Shown one piece after another: positions 8,439 to 39,232 of a DNA stretch of 64,000 nt (position 1 is its first letter; each line of letters starts with the position of its first letter). Origin of the DNA: Ostreococcus lucimarinus (lineage: Eukaryota); NCBI GenBank assembly GCA_000092065.1, contig CP000601.1. One strand, written 5' to 3'. The notes under the pieces are model-generated. The model had not been told where the DNA came from and searched no databases. It worked only from the letters and a program-made list of their open reading frames with translations. The position numbers were made by a program, and so were the translations under genes.

Positions 8439-11400
8439 ATGGACACGAATTGGACGCCAGCGACGCCCGCGCGCGCGCGTGCGGACGCACGAATCGCGTC
8501 GGATAAGGTGCTGTCGACAAAGGCGTTCGAGGACGCGCGGGTGAAGGATCACCGCGACGTGGAGCGGGAACGCGGGGTGTACCTGCCGCCGAGCGCGGAA
8601 GAGGCGGCGACGCACGCGGACAGCGCGCAGCCGAGACTGCTGAGCGAGGATGGGAAATTGGAAAAACTTAAATATTTTGACTCCGAAGTAGACTTGGGAT
8701 TGGAGTTCGGGGCGGGGGTATCGGGATACTTTTTCGTGCTGCGGGCGTTCGCGTGCTTGTTCTTCGCGGCGTTCGCGTTGAATTTGCCCGCGATGTTCAT
8801 TAATTACACGAGCACGTATTACGCGTCGCATTACGAAGCGGAGCCTGAAACCGCGACAGCGCCGACGGCGGACGCGCTCAGTGGACGCCCGACGACGTCG
8901 TTTCACTCGTGGTTCGTCGATTGGCACTGGGCGAATCCGATGAGCGCGAGCTTGGGGACCGTGGCGCCTGACGATGTGCCGCAACGAGCGTGGGTGCTCG
9001 CGGGGACAACGAGTGGGGTGCTGCGGTGGAGCTCCAGTAAGATAGATTTCATTCGATTTTCGGTGGTGATGGATGTCGTGGTGTCCTTGATAATTATATT
9101 GAGCGTTCCAGTGATTATGCTTGTGTTGATGCGTACGGAGCGACGGGTCGAGAGAGGGACGGCGACGTTGAAGGATTACACGGTATTAGTTACAGGATTA
9201 CCAAGCGATGCGACCGATGAAGAAGTGCGATGCTTTTTCGCGCTCAGGTTTGGGACGGTAGCCGACGTCGTGCTCGTAAAGACGGAGTGTATGCAAATCA
9301 ACGCGCAGCGACGGCGTCGGCGCTTGTTGGAGGATTACGACGAAGCCGAAGCTGCGCTCATCGCCGCAGGTAATCGCGGAGGTGACGGCACGAAGACGGC
9401 TATAGAAAACGAGATATTGGCTGTGGATAGGAAATTGAAGCGCAGAAGAGCGCGAACGCGGGCGAAACAGTGTAGTGCTTTCATCACGTTTGAAACCGAA
9501 GGCTCAAAGATTGATTGTATATTGCGCAACACGCGCAGTATAATGTCGTACATCTTTGCGTTTCCTAGGAAAGAGCGTTTCCGAGGAAAGCGGAAGTACA
9601 GAGTGCGAGATGCTCCCGAACCTGAGGACGTACGATTCGAGAATCTGAATCTCTCGAATCGCTCATGGCGTCGACTCGTCGTGCTATTCTCGTGCTCGGC
9701 CGTCGTGCTCTTGTGTTACGGCTTTTTGAAGATGCTCGTGGATGACAAGGAGAAGCTGTGGGAGAACGCAGACATGATGGTCACTACGCTTGCGGACGAT
9801 GTTGGCATTGTCGTCGCCCACGGTAATCCGGTTGAGCAATTCGAGACGCATAAGAATCAGTTCAGGACAGCATGCAGAGCTCGCTTGGACCAATGCGGCG
9901 TGGCTTTTTCCAAGGACAAAACGTACGTTGGCATGCCTTGGGGGGCGCCAATTTACGCTTTCTACGACTACCCCAACGCCACACTCTTAGATCGTCGTTA
10001 CGCTCAGCAGGATGCGGTTCGTGATTTGACGAATTGCGCCCAAGACACCAACCGTTGTCCGGGAGGTCCGACGATGCAAAACTGTCACGCGTGCTACTGC
10101 GCCAGTCTGAAGTACGGCTTAACTTCGGAGGTTGTTCGGGCATACAACAAAGCCATTCGCCACTCGTGCGCGAAATACGTGAACCTCGGTCCAGGAGAGT
10201 ATTACAACTGGTTGTGGGTGTCGTTTTGCATTACGCTCATGAACGTCCTCCTCGAATGGATTGTGCCCCTCCTCGTCGCCGCAGAACGTTTGCGCACGCG
10301 CAGTGCCACGAAGGTGCTCAAGACGAAAATAATCTTCTGGGTGCGATATTTGAACGTCGCGGTTATTTATGGCTTGCTCAACGCCAATTTCTATCACATT
10401 GGCAGGTATTTCCCGCTCATCAAGCAAATGTTTGGGCTCAAAGGCGAGTACGCAGATTTCACGAGCGAATGGTTCAACGACGTCGGCTTGGTGTTGTTTT
10501 TCGCAATCATGATGAGCGTGACGATACGTATTTTGGCTCGAGTACTTGTAGACATCATCACGCATGTCGGTCGAAAATTCTCCGTGGCGTACTGTCACAC
10601 GCAAGCAAAGCTGAACAAGGCGTTTGAAGGGCCATCGTTTGACACCGGCGCCAAGTGCGGCGACGTTTGCTTTACGATTATGGCGGCGATGACCTTTTCG
10701 AGCGGTATGCCGCTGATATACTTGGTTTTGTCGATGTACTTCGTGTTGGTGTACCTGTACGATTACCGCCTCCTGTTGAAAGTGTGCAAGTTGCCCGAAA
10801 GATCGAAGAGCACGCTTCCCATGACGGCGGCGAAGGTGCTTTTCATCTCAGTCTCGATTCACGCTCTCATCGGTCTTTGGATGTTCTCGTACCACTGGAC
10901 ACCTGATTTGGCGAAACCGACGAAAGACTTTGAACATTCGAGTAAGAACAATGCTCCTCCGCTTGCGTATGAGATTGGGGGTGAAATATTAAACCCGCCG
11001 CACGACAACGGCGCGCTCACGGCCATCGTGCAAAGCACCGGCGTCGCGACGACGTACTTTCATCAGTATCGCGACGCGACAGTCGGGGCGTTGTCGGCGG
11101 GAGATTTCGTCGCTCCACCGCCACGCGTACAGCTGCGTTTCGCAGAACGACCGTTCAGCGAAGCGGGGATGCCGTTCATGGGTATGTTCTTCGCCCTTTT
11201 GGGCGTCATGGGTTTGTGGCAAATCGCAGTCGCGTGGCATAACTGGGGCAAGTCGCGTCGAGACATCGCGCGCTCGTGGAAAAACTTACCTCAGTATCAC
11301 GAAGCCATCATGACCGGGTTAATCGTCGGTTCGGAGACGTACCGTCCCGAATATCAGCCCGATTACGCGTTCTTGTTCGACAAGAGCACTGTCGCGGCGG

Positions 11401-11891
11401 CCAAAATGAAACTAGGCTCGTACGCGGGAGGCCCCGTGCGCGGCGACTCGGTGAACTCGCGAGACGCGTGGTCGCTCGGACAAGGCGACGACGATGATAT
11501 CGCGGAGCTGATTCATCATCGTTATGATAACGAACGCGAGTACGACGGTGGCGCGCCTTGGGTGCGTAAGACCGGTTCAAAGATATACGGCGGCGACGCC
11601 GCGACCGCGAAGCGAGGCTCTCGCGGCACGCGCCAGCGCGACGGCGGACATTACGGCGTACCAGTGGTCGATGTTCGCGCTTTGGGGGTTGGAAGCGACT
11701 ACAATCACGTCGAAAACAACGCGTTCGGGCACTCCGACGCGTTCGTCGCGGATGATCATGAGTGGGACTCCGCCTCCGACGCCGACACGCTCGACGACGA
11801 CGCGTCGACGCAGCGAAGTCAATCCTTTAGCGATTACGAGAACGATGATCAACGATTCGACGGCGCCAGGCGACCGGCATGGCTCGACTAG
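8439..11891 (+). CDS. OSCA: OSCA/CSC1/TMEM63-family hyperosmolality-gated cation channel (RSN1_TM, PHM7_cyt, DUF221 architecture)
   Basis: True ATG is at 8439; the track M at 8421 is a GTG. TM0 is followed by a cytosolic RRM-like domain (TVLVTGLPSD..EEVRCFFALRFGTVADVVLV ... CSAFITFETEGSKIDCI) and then multiple TM helices (YNWLWVSFCITLMNVLLEWIVPLL.., FFAIMMSVTIRILARVL). Has a long low-complexity C-terminal tail. No intron seen. Confidence 0.85.
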   Translation: MDTNWTPATPARARADARIASDKVLSTKAFEDARVKDHRDVERERGVYLPPSAEEAATHADSAQPRLLSEDGKLEKLKYFDSEVDLGLEFGAGVSGYFFVLRAFACLFFAAFALNLPAMFINYTSTYYASHYEAEPETATAPTADALSGRPTTSFHSWFVDWHWANPMSASLGTVAPDDVPQRAWVLAGTTSGVLRWSSSKIDFIRFSVVMDVVVSLIIILSVPVIMLVLMRTERRVERGTATLKDYTVLVTGLPSDATDEEVRCFFALRFGTVADVVLVKTECMQINAQRRRRRLLEDYDEAEAALIAAGNRGGDGTKTAIENEILAVDRKLKRRRARTRAKQCSAFITFETEGSKIDCILRNTRSIMSYIFAFPRKERFRGKRKYRVRDAPEPEDVRFENLNLSNRSWRRLVVLFSCSAVVLLCYGFLKMLVDDKEKLWENADMMVTTLADDVGIVVAHGNPVEQFETHKNQFRTACRARLDQCGVAFSKDKTYVGMPWGAPIYAFYDYPNATLLDRRYAQQDAVRDLTNCAQDTNRCPGGPTMQNCHACYCASLKYGLTSEVVRAYNKAIRHSCAKYVNLGPGEYYNWLWVSFCITLMNVLLEWIVPLLVAAERLRTRSATKVLKTKIIFWVRYLNVAVIYGLLNANFYHIGRYFPLIKQMFGLKGEYADFTSEWFNDVGLVLFFAIMMSVTIRILARVLVDIITHVGRKFSVAYCHTQAKLNKAFEGPSFDTGAKCGDVCFTIMAAMTFSSGMPLIYLVLSMYFVLVYLYDYRLLLKVCKLPERSKSTLPMTAAKVLFISVSIHALIGLWMFSYHWTPDLAKPTKDFEHSSKNNAPPLAYEIGGEILNPPHDNGALTAIVQSTGVATTYFHQYRDATVGALSAGDFVAPPPRVQLRFAERPFSEAGMPFMGMFFALLGVMGLWQIAVAWHNWGKSRRDIARSWKNLPQYHEAIMTGLIVGSETYRPEYQPDYAFLFDKSTVAAAKMKLGSYAGGPVRGDSVNSRDAWSLGQGDDDDIAELIHHRYDNEREYDGGAPWVRKTGSKIYGGDAATAKRGSRGTRQRDGGHYGVPVVDVRALGVGSDYNHVENNAFGHSDAFVADDHEWDSASDADTLDDDASTQRSQSFSDYENDDQRFDGARRPAWLD

Positions 11892-12226
11892 GACGAAACG
11901 TACAGTGTAAGAAAACATAGCGTATTCATAGCGACAATCATAAAACGTGGTCACACTACAAACGCGGTCTGTTCGCGCTCCCTCGCCGGCGCCGCGTAAA
12001 AAACTAAACAACATCACGATTCACCATCAACGCGCGCGCGTCATCGGAGCACGAACTTCGAACACTCACTATGAAGTCGATTTCGTTCGATGCCCGTCAC
12101 GTGCGCGCGCGCCGCGGCGTCGTTTCGTCGTTTCTTCGTTCGCTCGCGCGTCCCGAAGGCCACGTCACTTTAGATAACGTAACCTTTCGCGCTCACCGCG
12201 CGCTCGAACCGAGCTTCGCCGTCCCG

Positions 12227-31525: not shown

Positions 31526-32698
31526 ATGACGCTTTTCGACGAAGAGATCGCGCGCCTCGACGTCGAGCGCGCCGATCTCGCCGCGCGCGCTGCCCGAGAG
31601 ACCGACGACGGTCGTCGCGCGTACGTCGACGCGATCGTCGCGCGCGTCGAGCGCGCGCGCGCGACGCTCGCCGCCGCCGCCGCCGCAGATTCGGGTGTCG
31701 AAAAACCGACGACGACGGGACGCGACGTCGCGCGCGTGCACGCGCGCGATCTCACGCCGCGACGTTTTCGACTCGAATACGTCGCCACGGATACCCCGGT
31801 CGTGATCGAGGGGCTCGGGAGCGCGCTGACGGAGGACGGCGCGGACGGCGAGACGTGCGCGTGGTTGACGCGGCGCGCCGGGAATAAAAAAGTCGCCGTC
31901 ACGAGGAAGGATGGTCACCGACGCGCGACGCTGTCGTGCGAGGTGACGGACGTTTTGGATTTAAAGGACTTTTTCGCGGAAGTCGTGGACGATCGAGGGG
32001 CGGGGAGTTACTTGTACGACACGTCGATTCCGCTCAAGCTGCCGTCGTTGTCGGAGAGCGTGCGCGTACCGGCGTACGTGGCACACGATTACATGCAGCG
32101 CACGATGCGATTGACGGCATTTTCACGGTCGTGGCCGAGCTTGTTTGTCGCCGCGAAGAACACGCGATCGTCCCTGCACGTCGATCAGTGGCAGGGGCAC
32201 TTTTTCATGGCCGTGGTGCGCGGCACGAAGCGATGGACCGTCTTCTCGCGCGAATCGCTCGCGTTTTTACGGCCGAGCTGGTCGCGCGGCACGCTCGATC
32301 CCGCGATGCCACCGTTGGAGGAACAAGAAGAGATGGGAATGTTACCGCTCCCGCGTGAATTCGGCGCGCGCCGATGGGACGTCGATCTTGGCCCGGGCGA
32401 GGTGCTTTTCGTGCCGGGCGGCTCGCCGCACGCCGTTCGAAACCTCGATTGCACGGTGGCGTTCGCGGGAAACTTCGTCGACGACGTCAATCTGGACCGC
32501 GTGTTGGAAGATTTAAAGCTCATGGCCGCCAAAGATCCCGCGTTGATGGAGAGCTACCGAGCGCTCGACGAGGTGGATTTCGACGACGAAGGCGCCGCGC
32601 TCGCGGCGGGCGACGACGACGTCCACGCGGGCGCGTTCGACGCGAACGCGCGCGTCGTGCGAGTCGCCGATTATCTCGCGGGGGGGCGACTCGTGTGA
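31526..32698 (+). CDS. JmjC-domain (cupin) protein, HSPBAP1/JMJD-like 2OG-Fe(II) oxygenase
   Basis: JmjC core SSLHVDQWQGHFFMAVVRGTKRWTVF .. GEVLFVPGGSPHAVRNLDCTVAFAGNF (the H-x-D...H Fe-binding pattern). ATG at 31526. Confidence 0.8.
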   Translation: MTLFDEEIARLDVERADLAARAARETDDGRRAYVDAIVARVERARATLAAAAAADSGVEKPTTTGRDVARVHARDLTPRRFRLEYVATDTPVVIEGLGSALTEDGADGETCAWLTRRAGNKKVAVTRKDGHRRATLSCEVTDVLDLKDFFAEVVDDRGAGSYLYDTSIPLKLPSLSESVRVPAYVAHDYMQRTMRLTAFSRSWPSLFVAAKNTRSSLHVDQWQGHFFMAVVRGTKRWTVFSRESLAFLRPSWSRGTLDPAMPPLEEQEEMGMLPLPREFGARRWDVDLGPGEVLFVPGGSPHAVRNLDCTVAFAGNFVDDVNLDRVLEDLKLMAAKDPALMESYRALDEVDFDDEGAALAAGDDDVHAGAFDANARVVRVADYLAGGRLV

Positions 32699-32808: not shown

Positions 32809-33036
32809 CTCACAGCGATAAATTTTTTAAAGTACTATCCGTCACCCCGAAACGACGAAAGTCACAGTGTTGTCGTGTCGCTTTTCCATCACGGACAATC
32901 GGGTGTGGGAAAAAGTAAGGTGTGATGTCGACACATCTCTTCCTGCGGGTTTCGATCCCGCGGCTTCCAGATCTCTATCGGAGCAGCCGTCATATTCGAC
33001 GGAGACTTTTTCCTAACAGTCTGACACTCTACCAGC
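32809..33036 (+). repeat. 228-bp dispersed repeat, copy 1 of 2 (same orientation as copy 2; about 98.7% identical)
   Basis: Alignable base-for-base with 38744-38971, with three mismatches. Contains a ZDRE-type palindrome ATGTCGACAC at 32925-32934, several hairpins (CCGTCATATTCGACGG; GCGGGTTTCGATCCCGC) and a T-arm-like GGATCGAAACC on the minus strand. Immediately preceded by the 13-bp palindrome CCCCCCATGGGGG. Confidence 0.85.
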
Positions 33037-33666: not shown

Positions 33667-35100
33667 TTAGTGCGCGTGTGCGTGTGAGTCTCCGCCACCG
33701 CCACCGCCTGTGCAATGCTTGTGGTTGAGGAGCACGAGACTGATGGCAACAACGCCGACGATGAAGGTGAGAATGCTCGTCGCGCGAAGACGAGGTGAAG
33801 TGGCGCTCACTGATACTCGGGGCATGCACTCTGCGGCGGCGATTTGCAGATAGACTCCAGCACCGAAGGCGAGCAGCAGTCCATGCCAGAAGTCGTTGTT
33901 ATTTCCCGATCCAACACTAATGAGGACGCCAAGAATGACACTCAAGCCGGAAACGAAGTTTAAAGTCAGCGTCGGCAACGGCGCGAGATCGCCCTGGAAG
34001 GGGTCTACGAGCACCAAGTAGTCAGCAAGCTCTTGAGCGATTTCGTGATAGACGGTCGCGGCGGTGATCGACCATCCCATGGTACTGTCGCAGTTCAGAA
34101 AGCCGAAGCCAATGAAAATACCATCCACTAGGTTGTGCATGAAATCTCCAAGAATGATACCACTTCGAACGCGATACTTGTGTGAGTTACAAGTACAAGT
34201 ATCACAGTCATCTTGAGCGCCTTTGACTGCAAGTTCCGCATCGGTTGTCTTCGCTGTATTTCCAAGAGTTGGGAACACGACAGAGATACCAAAGTCGATG
34301 AAGTAGGCCATGAGAAAGCCGAAGATAGAAGCGGAAGCCCACCATGCGGTCTGCTCTGCCTCATCCGAGCCAGCAGGTTTGATTAAATGCGTGGCTTCGT
34401 AGAACATCAGATAAAACGCAGCCGAAAGAAGTGCGCCGGCGGCAAACGAGTTAATTGTGCAACTCACAGTTTCAGGGTACGCTTTCTGCTTCTTAGCGAT
34501 ACTCGGGATGAGAAAGACCACACCAGAAAGTGTGACGATATTGACGATAATTGCCGCCCCAATGGCGTTGGCCCACGGTTTTGATTTCGATTCGCTCACG
34601 GTGGATGCTTCGGGAAGTGAAGCTTTTGGCACCACGTCATCTCCGTGGAGGTCCTTGAGATAGTGCGCGTCGCGCTCGAACTCGGTGGGAACGTGCTCAG
34701 CGAAGATTGAGATCGCGTCGATGCCAGTCGTATTAATCTTAAACGGCGTCGTGTGCCAGGTGTTGTCAAATTCAAGGTTGACACACCCACTATCAGGTGT
34801 CAAAACACTATCTCGTATCTTAGCCGTCGTACAAGCTCCCCCGATTGCGGTATCACCGCTATCCTCGCGGGCTTCGAGCTCGTCGTGTCCGGCGGCGATT
34901 TCGTCGTAGATGACCATTTTCATGGTATCGGCGGCGTACTTATCGGCCACCTTTTGCGCCTGCCACACGTATTCATTCTCTGGCGTCTCAAAGATTCCAG
35001 CCCATTCGAATGCGTGCGCGCCGGACGCGTGCGCGCCGCGCTGCGCGAGCGCGCTCGCGACGATCGCGATGCCACCACCGAGCGCGCTCGCGCAGCGCAT
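33667..35100 (-). CDS. ZIP: ZIP-family (ZRT/IRT-like, SLC39) divalent metal (zinc) transporter with an N-terminal signal peptide
   Basis: Signal peptide MRCASALGGGIAIVASALAQRGAHA. Large extracytosolic N-domain, then ZIP TM core with the signature HNLVDGIFIGFGF and HEIAQELADYLVL. Cytosolic loop with CDTCTCNSH, and a C-terminal GGGGGGDSHAHAH. ATG is the reverse complement of 35098-35100; an alternative upstream ATG at 35196 would put MTNENTKNTKTT.. before the signal peptide. Codon usage is atypical for this genome: C/T-ending GCC, GAT, GGT, ACT rather than GCG/ACG. Confidence 0.8.
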   Translation of the reverse strand: MRCASALGGGIAIVASALAQRGAHASGAHAFEWAGIFETPENEYVWQAQKVADKYAADTMKMVIYDEIAAGHDELEAREDSGDTAIGGACTTAKIRDSVLTPDSGCVNLEFDNTWHTTPFKINTTGIDAISIFAEHVPTEFERDAHYLKDLHGDDVVPKASLPEASTVSESKSKPWANAIGAAIIVNIVTLSGVVFLIPSIAKKQKAYPETVSCTINSFAAGALLSAAFYLMFYEATHLIKPAGSDEAEQTAWWASASIFGFLMAYFIDFGISVVFPTLGNTAKTTDAELAVKGAQDDCDTCTCNSHKYRVRSGIILGDFMHNLVDGIFIGFGFLNCDSTMGWSITAATVYHEIAQELADYLVLVDPFQGDLAPLPTLTLNFVSGLSVILGVLISVGSGNNNDFWHGLLLAFGAGVYLQIAAAECMPRVSVSATSPRLRATSILTFIVGVVAISLVLLNHKHCTGGGGGGDSHAHAH

Positions 35101-35325
35101 CGTTCGCCCTCGTCGTCGCTCGACCGTCCTCGCACCGCGTGCGCGTTCGCGCGGCGGCATCGTCGTCTTCGTGTTCTTCGTGTTTTCGTTCGTCATCGTT
35201 TCCGTCGTCGTCGTCGTCTTCGCCGGCGTCGGTAAGTGCGGCTGCGCACAAACTAAAGCGGCATACGAACCGAACCGGCGCGATGGAGGGCGGTCGTTTA
35301 TAAGTCACGACTCGCGAACGACAAA

Positions 35326-35482
35326 ATGTCGACATCCGCCGCAGTGTCGACACATCTCGGTGGTACTTGGATATGTCGAAATATGTCGACATGTGCGTCG
35401 AGACGTTTTTCGTATATAGATGCATCACGGGGTTCAATGCGTACACGCGCGTGGGTAAATATGTCGACATGCGTGTCGACAT
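35326..35482. promoter_or_regulatory. Cluster of five perfect Zinc-Deficiency-Response-Element motifs (RTGTCGACAY) in the shared ZIP/COG0523 divergent promoter
   Basis: ATGTCGACAT at 35326-35335. GTGTCGACAC at 35344-35353. ATGTCGACAT at 35383-35392, preceded by the half-site ATGTCGAAAT. ATGTCGACAT at 35461-35470. GTGTCGACAT at 35473-35482. All are 10-bp palindromes matching the Arabidopsis bZIP19/bZIP23 ZDRE consensus. They lie 130-380 bp upstream of the ZIP ATG and 180-330 bp upstream of the COG0523 ATG. Confidence 0.6.
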
Positions 35483-35546
35483 GTTTACGACGCGCGTCGC
35501 GACGCGATCCGTGATGGGCTTCGCGGGGCGTCGCGTACGACGATCC

Positions 35547-35589
35547 TCGACACGTGCACGACGCGAATCGTCGACACGTGCACGACGCG
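35547..35589. promoter_or_regulatory. Duplicated 19-bp motif TCGACACGTGCACGACGCG (half-ZDRE fused to a CACGTG G-box/E-box), 70-110 bp upstream of the COG0523 ATG
   Basis: Two copies separated by 5 bp: 35547-35565 and 35571-35589. Each contains CACGTG, at 35551-35556 and 35575-35580. Confidence 0.4.
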
Positions 35590-35658: not shown

Positions 35659-37299
35659 ATGTCCACACCCGCCGCAATCGCCAATCATAATCGATTGCCG
35701 GTGACAACGCTGTGCGGGTTCCTCGGCGCTGGGAAGACGACAACTCTGAAACGCGTGCTCGAAGCTAAGCGAGACGCGAACGGAAAGTTTCGGTGTGCCG
35801 TCGTCGTGAACGACGTCGCGGAGTTGAACATCGACAAAAAATTAATCGATGATTCCGCTTTGCTGCAGAGCGACGAGGTGGTTGCCATGCAGAACGGATG
35901 CGTGTGCTGTTCGTTGAGCGGAGACTTTGTAAAACAAATCGGGGACATGGCCAAGAGTGGCAATTTTGACTACATGATCGTAGAGGCATCAGGAGTGTCG
36001 GAACCGGCGGAAATTGCGAAACTCTTCGCAAATTGTGAGGACGATCACGATCATGAAGCTGCGCACGTTGATGAGCATGAACATTTGAGCACACTGGCGC
36101 GGCTGGATACGTGCGTGACGGTCATCGCTGCAGGTGACTTTCTCGACATGATTGATTCTTTCAGGGCGTCAGCTGTGAACAGGCAGTCTTACTCTCAATT
36201 GTTGGCTGAACAGATAGAGTACGCGAATGTCGTCGTATTGAACAAGGTCGACACTGTCGATGACGAACAACTCGCCGAGATTAAAGCGCAGATACAACTT
36301 CTCAATTCACGTGCTGATATTCTTGAAGCTGTGAACGGCGCGATCGACGTTACGCGAATCGTCAATACAAAACTTTACAAAGAGAATGACTTTGCTGGTT
36401 TCATAACATGGGAACAAGAGATAGAAGCAACATCTGTGAAGTCATGCTGCGCCGGCGCTAGGGACAAAGGTGAGTCTCCATGCTGTAAGCGAGCTCGCAT
36501 GAGAGAAACAGCCTTAAGCGAGGTCACGCTTGCACCAAGTTCTTCCCAAACACGTCACGATAGTCGGTTCGGTATTACGTCTTTCATTTACCGAGCCAGA
36601 AGACCTTTTCATCCCAAACGGTTTTTAGGCTCATTTGTCGAGCGCTTCTTCAGCTCCCTCGAGGCCGATGACCGTGATGAAGAAAAAGATGAAGAGACAC
36701 CAAGTGTAGACTGGAGTGCAGTGAAAGATATTCGAGCGCGACAAGAAGCGATGAAACTCAAGCGCCGTAAAAGGGAAGGTGAAATTGGTGTGCTGCTACG
36801 TTCGAAGGGTGTAACGTGGCTCAGTGATGCCCACGACTTGATAATTGTTTTCAGTCAGGCTGGTAATATTTACTCTCTCGAAGGATCAAGCCGATGGACC
36901 GCGCTGAATAAAAATGCTTGGGTCGGCTCACAGGGGATAAAGCAAGAACTTCGTAAAGACTGGGAGGGGCCTTATGGTGATCGCCGACAAGAACTGGTGT
37001 TCATTGGCAAGGATCTTAAATACGATGAAATTCAATCAACGTTGGACTCTTGCCTCTTGACCGACGAAGAATTCGAAATGGGTTCTGATGGCTGGAGAGC
37101 AGTCATGGGTGATGTCTTTCTAGACGAAGACGACGAAGACGAAGACGACGAAGTCGATGACGAAGACGACGAAGAAATCGACGAAGATTTGGTCGACGAC
37201 GAGGAGATCGAAGAGGAGATCAGGCCGCAACCCACTTCAAAGTCGAAGGCAAAACCAAAGGCAAAGTCGGCGCCCTCTCAAAACGACGGCTTAGTCTGA
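35659..37299 (+). CDS. ZNG1: COG0523/CobW-family GTPase (ZNG1-type zinc metallochaperone) with a His-rich linker and a long poly-acidic C-terminal tail
   Basis: ATG at 35659. P-loop GFLGAGKTT, metal-binding GCVCC, switch/NKVD motif VLNKVD. His-rich stretch EDDHDHEAAHVDEHEHL. CobW_C domain GITSFIYRARRPFHPKRFLGSF .. WLSDAHDLIIVFSQAGNIYSLE. Acidic tail DEDDEDEDDEVDDEDDEEIDEDLVDDEEIEEE. Atypical codon usage with many A/T-ending codons. The internal GTGAGT..TTTTTAG is not an intron, because the in-frame read-through encodes the conserved CobW_C motif. Confidence 0.85.
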   Translation: MSTPAAIANHNRLPVTTLCGFLGAGKTTTLKRVLEAKRDANGKFRCAVVVNDVAELNIDKKLIDDSALLQSDEVVAMQNGCVCCSLSGDFVKQIGDMAKSGNFDYMIVEASGVSEPAEIAKLFANCEDDHDHEAAHVDEHEHLSTLARLDTCVTVIAAGDFLDMIDSFRASAVNRQSYSQLLAEQIEYANVVVLNKVDTVDDEQLAEIKAQIQLLNSRADILEAVNGAIDVTRIVNTKLYKENDFAGFITWEQEIEATSVKSCCAGARDKGESPCCKRARMRETALSEVTLAPSSSQTRHDSRFGITSFIYRARRPFHPKRFLGSFVERFFSSLEADDRDEEKDEETPSVDWSAVKDIRARQEAMKLKRRKREGEIGVLLRSKGVTWLSDAHDLIIVFSQAGNIYSLEGSSRWTALNKNAWVGSQGIKQELRKDWEGPYGDRRQELVFIGKDLKYDEIQSTLDSCLLTDEEFEMGSDGWRAVMGDVFLDEDDEDEDDEVDDEDDEEIDEDLVDDEEIEEEIRPQPTSKSKAKPKAKSAPSQNDGLV

Positions 37300-38130: not shown

Positions 38131-38628
38131 ATGCCGTCGGGATGCGTGTACGAAATGTTTAGCGATAATGCGAAATGTAACAAAACGTACATCGGATCGA
38201 CGACGGGTTCGCTCAGAGCGCGCCTTGCCTCGCATAAATACGCACGACATCCAATCTTCACGTTTGGCGACGCGGACGTGAGAGTTCTCGAAAAGGACAT
38301 TCCAGCTGGAGAGCTCCATCAACGTAAAGGTGCCTACATGAGAGAGAAGCGTGACGGCTTATTCAACTCCCGAGCTGCTGGACGCAGCCAGAAACACGCG
38401 TGCCGCGAGAACGTGGACGAGAGTCCAGCCTACAGCAGAGCTCAATATACGCCGAAGCGGGACGGCGGCGATGGTAACTACAGACAACTCAATTATTACA
38501 AGCAGCACGCAAAAGGAATACTGCGCAAGACGTGCCTCAAGAATGCCCGAGCGCGCGGCACGCTGCCTTCGAAGCGCAGTCTCGACAAGTATCAATTTAC
38601 GGTAGATGAGTTACGCGGCTTGGCTTGA
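38131..38628 (+). CDS. GIY-YIG domain nuclease (homing-endonuclease-like), 165 aa
   Basis: ATG at 38131. N-terminal GIY-YIG motifs GCVYEMFSDNAKCNKTYIGSTTGSLRARLASHKY (GIY .. YIG-S-T .. R .. H). A basic C-terminal half follows (KRDGGDGNYRQLNYYKQHAKGILRK..). Atypical codon usage. Sits between a MITE-like element and the second 228-bp repeat. Confidence 0.7.
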   Translation: MPSGCVYEMFSDNAKCNKTYIGSTTGSLRARLASHKYARHPIFTFGDADVRVLEKDIPAGELHQRKGAYMREKRDGLFNSRAAGRSQKHACRENVDESPAYSRAQYTPKRDGGDGNYRQLNYYKQHAKGILRKTCLKNARARGTLPSKRSLDKYQFTVDELRGLA

Positions 38629-38743: not shown

Positions 38744-38971
38744 CTCATAGCGATAAATTTTTTAAAGTACTATCCGTCACCCCGAAACGACGAAAGTCAC
38801 AGTGTTGTCGTGTCGCTTTTCCATCACGGACAATCGGGTATGGGAAAAAGTAAGGTTTGATGTCGACACATCTCTTCCTGCGGGTTTCGATCCCGCGGCT
38901 TCCAGATCTCTATCGGAGCAGCCGTCATATTCGACGGAGACTTTTTCCTAACAGTCTGACACTCTACCAGC
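38744..38971 (+). repeat. 228-bp dispersed repeat, copy 2 of 2
   Basis: About 98.7% identical to 32809-33036. ZDRE-type ATGTCGACAC at 38860-38869. Preceded by an A9 tract and AT-rich sequence. Ends 262 bp upstream of the ATG of the 39233 gene. Confidence 0.85.
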
Positions 38972-39232
38972 TGAGTTAAGGAAGACTGTTTATGCATACG
39001 CACAACATCGCGGACATTCGACTGCCCATGCTCTTTATTTCGAGGCTTAACTCGGCGAGGTGGACGAATAATTGGTATTATACGTCGCTCGATGGTGGGT
39101 TTGCGACAGATCTTCGCGGCTTGACGCCGTCGATCCGCGATCGCGAATGTTACAGGTTGAGGGCTCGGGCGAGGACGTCGGTGGTTTTCGCGCGTTCGTT
39201 CGTTCGTCGTCACTCCGCGGTCGAATCCATCG

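Follow-up and report, generated by a model that had tools for sequence, protein, structure and literature searches.

The closest described system is that of Arabidopsis, in which the basic leucine zipper (bZIP) factors bZIP19 and bZIP23 bind the zinc deficiency response element (ZDRE) RTGTCGACAY in the promoters of ZIP metal transporter genes (PMC9643250; PMC5656842). Cys/His-rich motifs are group-defining for these F-bZIPs (PMC5656842; also PMC9643250), a family that a 2022 Planta review describes as confined to land plants, and in the plant-nutrition literature the F-bZIP/ZDRE switch for zinc counts as a land-plant innovation tied to soil life (Castro 2017; 2022 Planta review). For the green alga Chlamydomonas, a paper of 2009 gave both the zinc regulator and its cis-element as unknown (PMC2770081), and no publication on an algal ZDRE-like element or on a zinc regulator of algae or of Ostreococcus was found in the open-access literature. 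Here we describe a stretch of 64,000 nucleotides from contig CP000601.1 of the alga Ostreococcus lucimarinus (GCA_000092065.1), referred to as the window, in which five exact copies of RTGTCGACAY lie in the 558-bp spacer between two divergent genes for a ZIP transporter and a COG0523 GTPase. This cluster of conserved cis-elements is real and probably acts in the manner of the ZDRE/bZIP19 system of plants. The account we favour, and consider rather likely, is that the five palindromes are putative sites of a dimeric bZIP that switches on ZIP and COG0523 at a shortage of trace metal, most likely zinc.

The two flanking genes are as the initial annotation of this stretch had assigned them, i.e. 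a ZIP-family metal transporter on the minus strand (33667..35100, 477 amino acids; PF02535, E = 1e-21) and, diverging from it on the plus strand, a long COG0523 GTPase (35659..37299, 546 amino acids) with the domains PF02492 (E = 5e-41) and PF07683 (E = 1e-18). The start codon used here for ZIP is the one conserved with O. tauri, and an upstream ATG at 35196 is possible. The COG0523 protein has the domain make-up of its family, a G3E GTPase with Walker A motif (GFLGAGKTT) and CxCC (GCVCCS) plus CobW_C, and a His-rich stretch, a Cys-rich insert and an acidic tail are readable as well. The five exact palindromes had also been placed correctly. The ZIP-proximal pair, which is ancestral, consists of palindrome 1 (ATGTCGACAT, 35326..35335), with the ZIP ATG 226 bp downstream, and palindrome 2 (GTGTCGACAC, 35344..35353). 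They are followed by palindrome 3 (ATGTCGACAT, 35383..35392), palindrome 4 (ATGTCGACAT, 35461..35470) and palindrome 5 (GTGTCGACAT, 35473..35482), the last starting 12 bp from the start of palindrome 4 and lying 177 bp from the COG0523 ATG. A one-mismatch site, ATGTCGAAAT (35373..35382), directly abuts palindrome 3, and a decayed copy, GCGTCGAGAC (35395-35404), comes just after it. All window sites of the spacer are thus at least 226 bp upstream of the ZIP ATG, a promoter location as in plant ZDREs, and 1-5 copies are present per sampled lineage.

In the whole window, RTGTCGACAY was observed seven times, whereas 100 dinucleotide-preserving shuffles gave 0.45 on average and at most 2, none of them (0/100) reaching seven. 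The GTCGAC core alone occurs at the expected frequency (77 observed vs. 71.6 expected), and the enrichment signal therefore resides in the full palindrome. These counts uphold the earlier statement that the density is far above chance, although the rate of one match per 260 kb given with it applies only to a uniform base composition and becomes about one per 140 kb for this CG-rich sequence. The five spacer sites are not five independent events, since palindromes 3 to 5 derive from a 30-nt unit that was duplicated locally (direct repeat D13, 35379-35408 and 35457-35486, 87% identical). Likewise, the two window sites outside the spacer, at 32925 and 38860 (both ATGTCGACAC), sit at the same offset in the two copies of one 228-bp direct repeat and hence count as one event; these palindromes, located in a tRNA 3' trailer, are probably due to chance. 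Beyond the ZIP region and the tRNA repeats, the sole window copy of TGTCGACA is found at 8512-8519 inside a long open reading frame (ORF). This coding-region copy is without the R and Y flanks (cTGTCGACAa), while all intergenic copies of TGTCGACA have both, and the flanks are kept at the intergenic sites of relatives, too.

Conservation of the sites was followed through related loci, in which the ZIP orthologues, one of them O. tauri Q017A3 (gene ostta06g02310), are 77-99% identical. Every Ostreococcus lineage fetched, O. tauri among them, has RTGTCGACAY as a pair or triplet ahead of the orthologous ZIP. The pair with a start-to-start distance of 18 bp occurs upstream of ZIP in L001-L003, L007-L013 and most of L019-L032, and it is the sole universal part of the cluster, sites 3 to 5 being lineage-specific. 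Five sites are found upstream of ZIP in L011, as in the window, and three on chromosome 6 of O. tauri (L014), where they lie between the ZIP gene ostta06g02310 and the bZIP gene ostta06g02300 with the same 12-bp spacing as palindromes 4 and 5 of the window. A profile scan of the metagenomes of the Joint Genome Institute (JGI) yielded 16 further loci, with 1-3 sites in every one that includes the spacer. When the ZIP upstream regions of six lineages were aligned (alignment A4), just two blocks proved invariant in otherwise diverged spacers, one RTGTCGACAY palindrome and GAGTCRYGACTC. The palindrome aligned with window site 1 is unchanged in all six, and the other member of the pair is kept in five and shifted in O. 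tauri. The second block is also palindromic and lies on the ZIP side of the pair in the window (AAGTCACGACTC, 35302..35313; family consensus GAGTCRYGACTC); it accompanies the pair on that side throughout the Ostreococcus lineages, as seen in L007 (7786), L008 (7641), L009 (2413), L013 (1813) and O. tauri (L014, 8873) and also in L012. It is made up of two inverted TGACTC half-sites and resembles AP-1/GCN4 sites. Across six non-redundant loci (146 kb), 22 copies of RTGTCGACAY compare with 1.16 expected, and 17 of the 22 are in ZIP upstream spacers.

The association extends to a more distant alga (L015-L017), in which ZIP is just ~21% identical and the genes are arranged tail to tail, with a bZIP neighbour still present. 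In L015, the only two copies of TGTCGACA in 16.5 kb are both ATGTCGACAT and both upstream of ZIP. Two further loci have a neighbourhood of their own: a ferric-reductase gene and a NikA-like PF00496 gene adjoin the ZIP-bZIP cassette in L009 (5817-10471) and L010 (6009-10663), possibly as a metal-acquisition region, and an isolated ATGTCGACAT occurs at 5649 of L009 in ~1.8 kb without a convincing ORF. Two relatives of the window COG0523 of 520-525 amino acids on 2-Mb contigs (P0056, P0074) were set aside as bacterial, with type II secretion system and FUR neighbours, and were of no use for promoter comparison.

In all lineages but that of the window, the gene across the spacer from ZIP encodes a bZIP protein of about 190-260 amino acids, and a ZNG1-like COG0523 gene (431-435 amino acids) comes next in O. 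tauri, L007 and L013. An exact site is located ~75 bp upstream of the probable start of this COG0523 gene in L007 and L013; in O. tauri, RTGACGACAY variants, not exact sites, are found upstream of it. Such variants, which combine a TGACG with a CGACA half-site, occur repeatedly in the bZIP-cobW spacer (L014 9645, 9721 and 9811; L013 ~2580) and may be weaker or heterodimer sites. Altogether, the linkage of bZIP, ZIP and palindrome is present in at least six lineages and in two gene orientations, including the distant alga with its non-orthologous ZIP. The gene arrangement of the window is derived, since the ZIP of L029, 92% identical to that of the window, is paired with a bZIP. The COG0523 protein of the window shares just 31-32% identity with the ZNG1-like, bZIP-linked proteins of L007/L013 and O. 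tauri, and its nearest named relatives come from Cymbomonas, diatoms and bacteria, all with at most 53% identity. By sequence comparison, it is a member of a different subfamily common to these organisms and not an orthologue of the ZNG1 paralogue.

Expression of the cluster can be followed in the O. tauri RNA sequencing of Lelandais 2016 (PMC4855317, Additional files 4 and 5; four time points). The genes concerned are ostta06g02290 (CobW, 1296 nt), ostta06g02300 (630 nt, “ATF4/5, bZIP” in the annotation of that study) and ostta06g02310 (ZIP, 1422 nt), each identical in length in L014. In replete medium, the three genes are hardly expressed (PMC4855317). Under chronic low iron, i.e. a week at 54 nM vs. 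1080 nM Fe-EDTA in EDTA-buffered medium, cobW was up about 8- to 18-fold and ZIP ~4-fold at all four time points, and bZIP was up at three of the four, with log2 ratios of low to high iron at the first two time points of 3.5 and 3.4 for cobW, 2.1 and 1.6 for bZIP, and 2.1 and 1.8 for ZIP (PMC4855317). Short-term chelation with desferrioxamine B (DFOB) did not induce cobW, and the study reports strong iron-zinc cross-talk with 56 up-regulated genes for zinc-containing proteins (PMC4855317). This shows that the cluster of ZIP, bZIP and COG0523 is co-regulated by trace-metal status, which does not imply zinc specificity; a literature search for a zinc-limitation transcriptome found none. The co-regulation of transporter and metallochaperone, as first suggested for the window, is thus seen for ZIP and cobW of O. 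tauri under low iron, but the COG0523 of the window itself is a paralogue of the latter with 32% identity.

The kind of bZIP involved can be judged from its basic region, which reads NR[AV]AVRRYRER[KR]R in the algal family and is of the N-x2-A-V-x2-Y-R type. With contact positions as known from GCN4-type structures, the algal bZIP offers N, A, V, Y and R, and the F-type basic region NREAVRKYREKKK with these contacts is thus found in bZIPs from related loci, not from the window. A published table of 47 sugar-beet bZIP basic regions, which leaves its groups unlabelled, contains only two with NREAVRKYR, and these two are the best matches to all four Ostreococcus proteins. Searching 1.84 billion representative proteins with the algal profile (HMMER) gave 37 significant hits, composed of the algal family, the homologue of the distant alga (P0452), the F-like proteins P0454 and P0467, and animal ATF4-like proteins; the best matches outside the algal family show the signature AV..YR or AA..YR. 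In the algal bZIPs, the part that precedes the basic region contains 0 to 2 Cys and is devoid of His. Five residues are invariant, the distant alga included, namely C63, H86, H173, C177 and C179 (O. tauri numbering), and the C-terminus has the motif F-L-x-x-[YF]-x-x-H-x-D-x-C-P-C with an invariant H-x3-C-P-C. One of the F-like hits, P0454 (L018 8001-10289), is a protein of 762 amino acids from a compact marine eukaryote with two NR[AE]AVRRYREKKKA bZIP domains and, upstream of these, Cys/His-rich stretches (DCVHAHHTC ... ECWHVH) reminiscent of the zinc-sensor motif of plants. As a further case of the circuit, this locus was rejected: it has no TGTCGACA and no ZIP neighbour, and its promoter contains GTGTCGGCAY twice.

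Taken together, we propose that the linked bZIP would bind the palindrome, given its F-like contacts N, A, V, Y and R and the identical element in plants. Under metal shortage, the palindromes may then drive expression of ZIP, of COG0523 and, in most lineages, of the bZIP gene; autoregulation of the bZIP is suggested by the sites in its own promoter. Metal might be sensed via C63, H86, H173, C177 and C179, with the C-terminal F-x-H-x-D-x-C-P-C, and not via a plant-type N-terminal motif. In the lineage of the window, the ZIP promoter appears to have been joined by recombination to another COG0523 gene, within a 5.9-kb segment flanked by tRNA-Asn-derived repeats, the number of sites would have grown from two to five by local duplication, and the regulator would act in trans from elsewhere in the genome. 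Zinc is proposed as the signal because plants have the identical element as their ZDRE, because the presumed targets include COG0523 proteins of zinc- or cobalt-responsive kinds, and because a NikA-like gene resembling ZCRP-B is a neighbour in L009. Of the bZIP19/23-type zinc regulon postulated in the initial annotation, the conserved ZIP-tied sites, a linked F-like bZIP and metal co-induction in O. tauri have stood up, and membership of the regulator in group F has not. The F-group bZIP with a Cys/His zinc sensor that it predicted was not recovered: the linked algal bZIPs are without this motif, no recognisable land-plant F-bZIP was matched at E < 0.001, and no bZIP of the linked family is encoded in the 64-kb window.

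Several observations weigh against this interpretation. No bZIP of the linked family is encoded within the 64-kb window, and one natural haplotype of this promoter (L002, L003, L012) has none of sites 3 to 5, so the five-fold site density is not essential. Group-F Cys/His-rich motifs 1 and 2 are missing from the algal bZIPs, the closest solved structure to which is animal ATF4 (PDB 1CI6). The HMMER search with the algal profile returned no recognisable land-plant F-bZIP at E < 0.001, the domain being short, and NREAVRKYR is only presumably the group F signature of Arabidopsis bZIP19/23/24, an assignment that the sugar-beet table supports indirectly. Castro et al. 2017 observed no F-bZIP in O. 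lucimarinus or Chlamydomonas. Lastly, the expression data concern iron limitation only, under which about 1,200 genes (~15%) rise (PMC4855317).

The main rival, and the one that holds the sole direct data, is the same architecture of bZIP and palindrome with iron or general divalent-metal deficiency as the signal, in which case the likeness to the ZDRE would be only apparent. We regard this as somewhat unlikely. Besides the measured induction of ostta06g02290, 02300 and 02310 after a week of low Fe-EDTA, it can draw on the O. tauri authors, who put ZIP under iron uptake (PMC4855317), and on the ferric-reductase gene that adjoins the cassette in L009 and L010. That same neighbourhood in L009, however, includes a NikA-like PF00496 gene of the same kind as diatom ZCRP-B, and COG0523 proteins of the kinds ZNG1 and ZCP1/ZCRP-A are zinc- or cobalt-responsive, those of Chlamydomonas being unaffected by iron (PMC2770081; PMC9010474; PMC10642216). 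The broad rise of genes in chronic low iron and the failure of short-term iron chelation to induce cobW likewise speak against iron as the direct signal, and the iron-zinc cross-talk with its 56 up-regulated zinc-protein genes could lower labile zinc secondarily. On the other hand, the regulator might be a true orthologue of plant bZIP19/23 in this alga, a plain member of the land-plant family with its Cys/His zinc sensor. The identical 10-mer consensus at a ZIP target (PMC9643250) and the F-type basic region of the linked bZIP would fit, and P0454, which joins F-like basic regions with Cys/His-rich stretches, indicates that such proteins exist outside land plants. Such an orthologue is nonetheless improbable given the composition of the linked bZIPs (no His and ~1 Cys N-terminal of the basic region), the report of Castro et al. 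2017 on O. lucimarinus and the lack of land-plant F-bZIPs among the significant HMMER hits.

Given the linkage and the footprint across lineages, binding by another factor or a non-regulatory origin of the sites is much less likely. Were the sites regulatory and bound by some other protein, the neighbouring bZIP would be a target or a bystander. The window sites, if functional, operate without an adjacent bZIP, and the second conserved palindrome beside the pair shows that further factors act here, yet we consider this option unlikely as well, since the bZIP linkage recurs in at least six lineages and two orientations, even next to the non-orthologous ZIP of the distant alga, and a perfect 10-bp palindrome suits a homodimeric bZIP. 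Moreover, the basic-region signature fits what we take to be the only bZIP group known to bind exactly RTGTCGACAY. A purely non-regulatory origin, as a by-product of tandem duplication, as recombination or target sites of a mobile-looking segment or by chance, seems very improbable and is largely refuted by cross-lineage conservation: the pair is kept at native, non-island loci of O. tauri and others within diverged spacers, and shuffles never attain the observed counts. The duplicated 30-nt unit behind sites 3 to 5, the 10-mer in the 228-bp tRNA-derived repeats that bound the segment and the structural polymorphism of the region would be in its favour; however, in L001 the repeat-borne copy is mutated and the promoter copies are intact.

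The locus varies among strains. In the haplotype of L002, L003 and L012, only sites 1 and 2 are present, and ~300 bp on the COG0523 side are swapped for unrelated sequence. In L001, the palindrome of the left repeat copy is mutated to ATGTTGACAC, and this repeat copy is split by an 86-bp insertion. The length of the COG0523 protein differs as well (546 amino acids in the window, 684 in L001 at 10001-12055, and 507-510 in L002 at 832-2364), which may reflect an altered acidic Asp/Glu-rich C-terminal tail. Towards COG0523, the spacer contains two 23-nt direct repeats (D18, ATC[CG]TCGACACGTGCACGACGCG, 35543..35589), ~70-115 bp ahead of the ATG and each with a CACGTG G-box; the haplotype L002/L003 is without them, the region being replaced. 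The right flank of the repeat-bounded segment is strain-dependent, with genes for RING/ANAPC11 and for a protein of 584 amino acids in L001 and L011. Contigs near-identical to the window are present in TARA and other marine metagenomes.

The segment itself is 5.9 kb long, contains ZIP, the spacer, COG0523 and an ORF of 165 amino acids, and is bracketed by the 99% identical copies of the 228-bp repeat (D2). The right copy (38744-38971) overlaps an intact tRNA-Asn(GUU) with a 41-nt intron (38872-38985, minus strand; Rfam tRNA 49 bits), with ATGTCGACAC at 38860 just 3' of the tRNA; ARAGORN finds no tRNA at default settings and reports the tRNA-Asn once introns are allowed. The left copy (32809..33036) consists of a truncated pseudo-tRNA-Asn and trailer with ATGTCGACAC at 32925, and neither the Rfam scan nor ARAGORN called a tRNA in it. 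Direct repeats derived from a tRNA 3' end that bracket a segment, one on the intact gene and one truncated, are a mark of integrative elements, but no integrase or recombinase and no foreign composition were found in the segment. Its GC content is lower than that of its surroundings; as a sign of horizontal transfer of ZIP this was discarded, for native-locus orthologues share an equally low GC content at third codon positions (GC3). A viral origin was discarded, too, with the 165-amino-acid ORF and ZIP lacking relatives in viral contigs. This ORF (38131..38628, plus strand) is GIY-YIG-like (PF01541, E = 0.009, under the curated cut-off), and a GIY-YIG nuclease, ostta16g00515, is among the genes induced in the O. 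tauri iron study (Lelandais 2016, PMC4855317). An Rfam match to BTH_s1 in the spacer (24 bits vs. a gathering score of 74 bits) was regarded as noise, and Rfam gave no RNA families over threshold in related loci. A JmjC/cupin_8 protein (31526-32698, plus strand) is identical to two accessions of O. lucimarinus CCE9901, XP_001421140.1 and XP_001422815.1, which hints at a segmental duplication between chromosomes. The identity to XP_001421140.1 assigns the window to O. lucimarinus or a very close clade-A strain.

If our interpretation is true, the origin of the circuit moves back to early green algae, or else a striking convergence has taken place, and a plant nutrient switch may predate land plants. 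A homologous circuit, inherited from the ancestor of green algae and plants and surviving in the smallest free-living eukaryotes as an autoregulated three-gene cassette (sensor-regulator, importer, metallochaperone) with a moved Cys/His sensor and with parts that can be reshuffled between chromosomal sites, is a possibility that we hold to be less likely than not. A confirmed circuit would offer another naturally evolved metal-sensing module for comparison with the plant sensor motif and a mechanistic marker of trace-metal stress for oceanographers in an abundant marine phytoplankter. A concrete candidate regulator is at hand in ostta06g02300 and its orthologues, with a probable operator and probable targets, and O. 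tauri is a transformable model picoalga with a genome of 13 Mb.

Compared with Arabidopsis bZIP19/bZIP23-ZDRE-ZIP4/ZIP/NAS, a system also present in rice and wheat, the algal locus has the identical RTGTCGACAY, multiple copies of it in ZIP promoters and an inferred target set that is small. The associated bZIP shares N-x2-A-V-x2-Y-R, which we take to be the signature of the plant factors as well. The wheat F-bZIP gene is inducible itself (PMC5656842), as is the algal one. The circuit thus resembles bZIP19/23-ZDRE-ZIP, but it falls short in one defining feature of the F-bZIPs, the sensor motif, since the algal bZIP is without N-terminal motifs 1 and 2 and its candidate sensor is the C-terminal H-x3-C-P-C together with C63 and H86. 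Unlike in Arabidopsis, the genes for regulator, transporter and chaperone are clustered at the algal loci and share sites, the COG0523 gene is a presumed target, and the bZIP is probably autoregulated. Animal ATF4/ATF5 form the largest HMMER group outside the algal family and have the same unusual Tyr (N-x2-A-A-x2-Y-R). In ATF4, however, Ala takes the place of the Val of the algal and plant F proteins, and the C-terminal Cys/His motif is missing; we know of no link of ATF4 to metal homeostasis and of no binding of TGTCGACA by it.

Further likenesses concern the targets. ZIP and COG0523 are hallmark low-zinc genes in the green alga Chlamydomonas, whose zinc regulon includes ZRT/ZIP and the COG0523 genes ZCP1 and ZCP2 (PMC2770081), although no transcription factor gene lies in a cluster with them. 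Diatom proteins are among the best named relatives of the window COG0523 (~45% identity), which recalls diatom ZCRP-A, itself a COG0523 protein, without implying orthology to it, and the PF00496 gene that adjoins the cassette of ZIP and bZIP in L009 and L010 is of the same family as the NikA-like ZCRP-B, again with no orthology implied. Bacterial Zur regulons differ in having a FUR/Zur repressor instead of a eukaryotic bZIP, and the algal genes are monocistronic and nuclear. Nevertheless, these regulons likewise place regulator, ZIP/ZupT importer and COG0523 side by side with palindromic operators, and in a bacterial relative (L006) COG0523, Zip and a FUR-family gene occur together.

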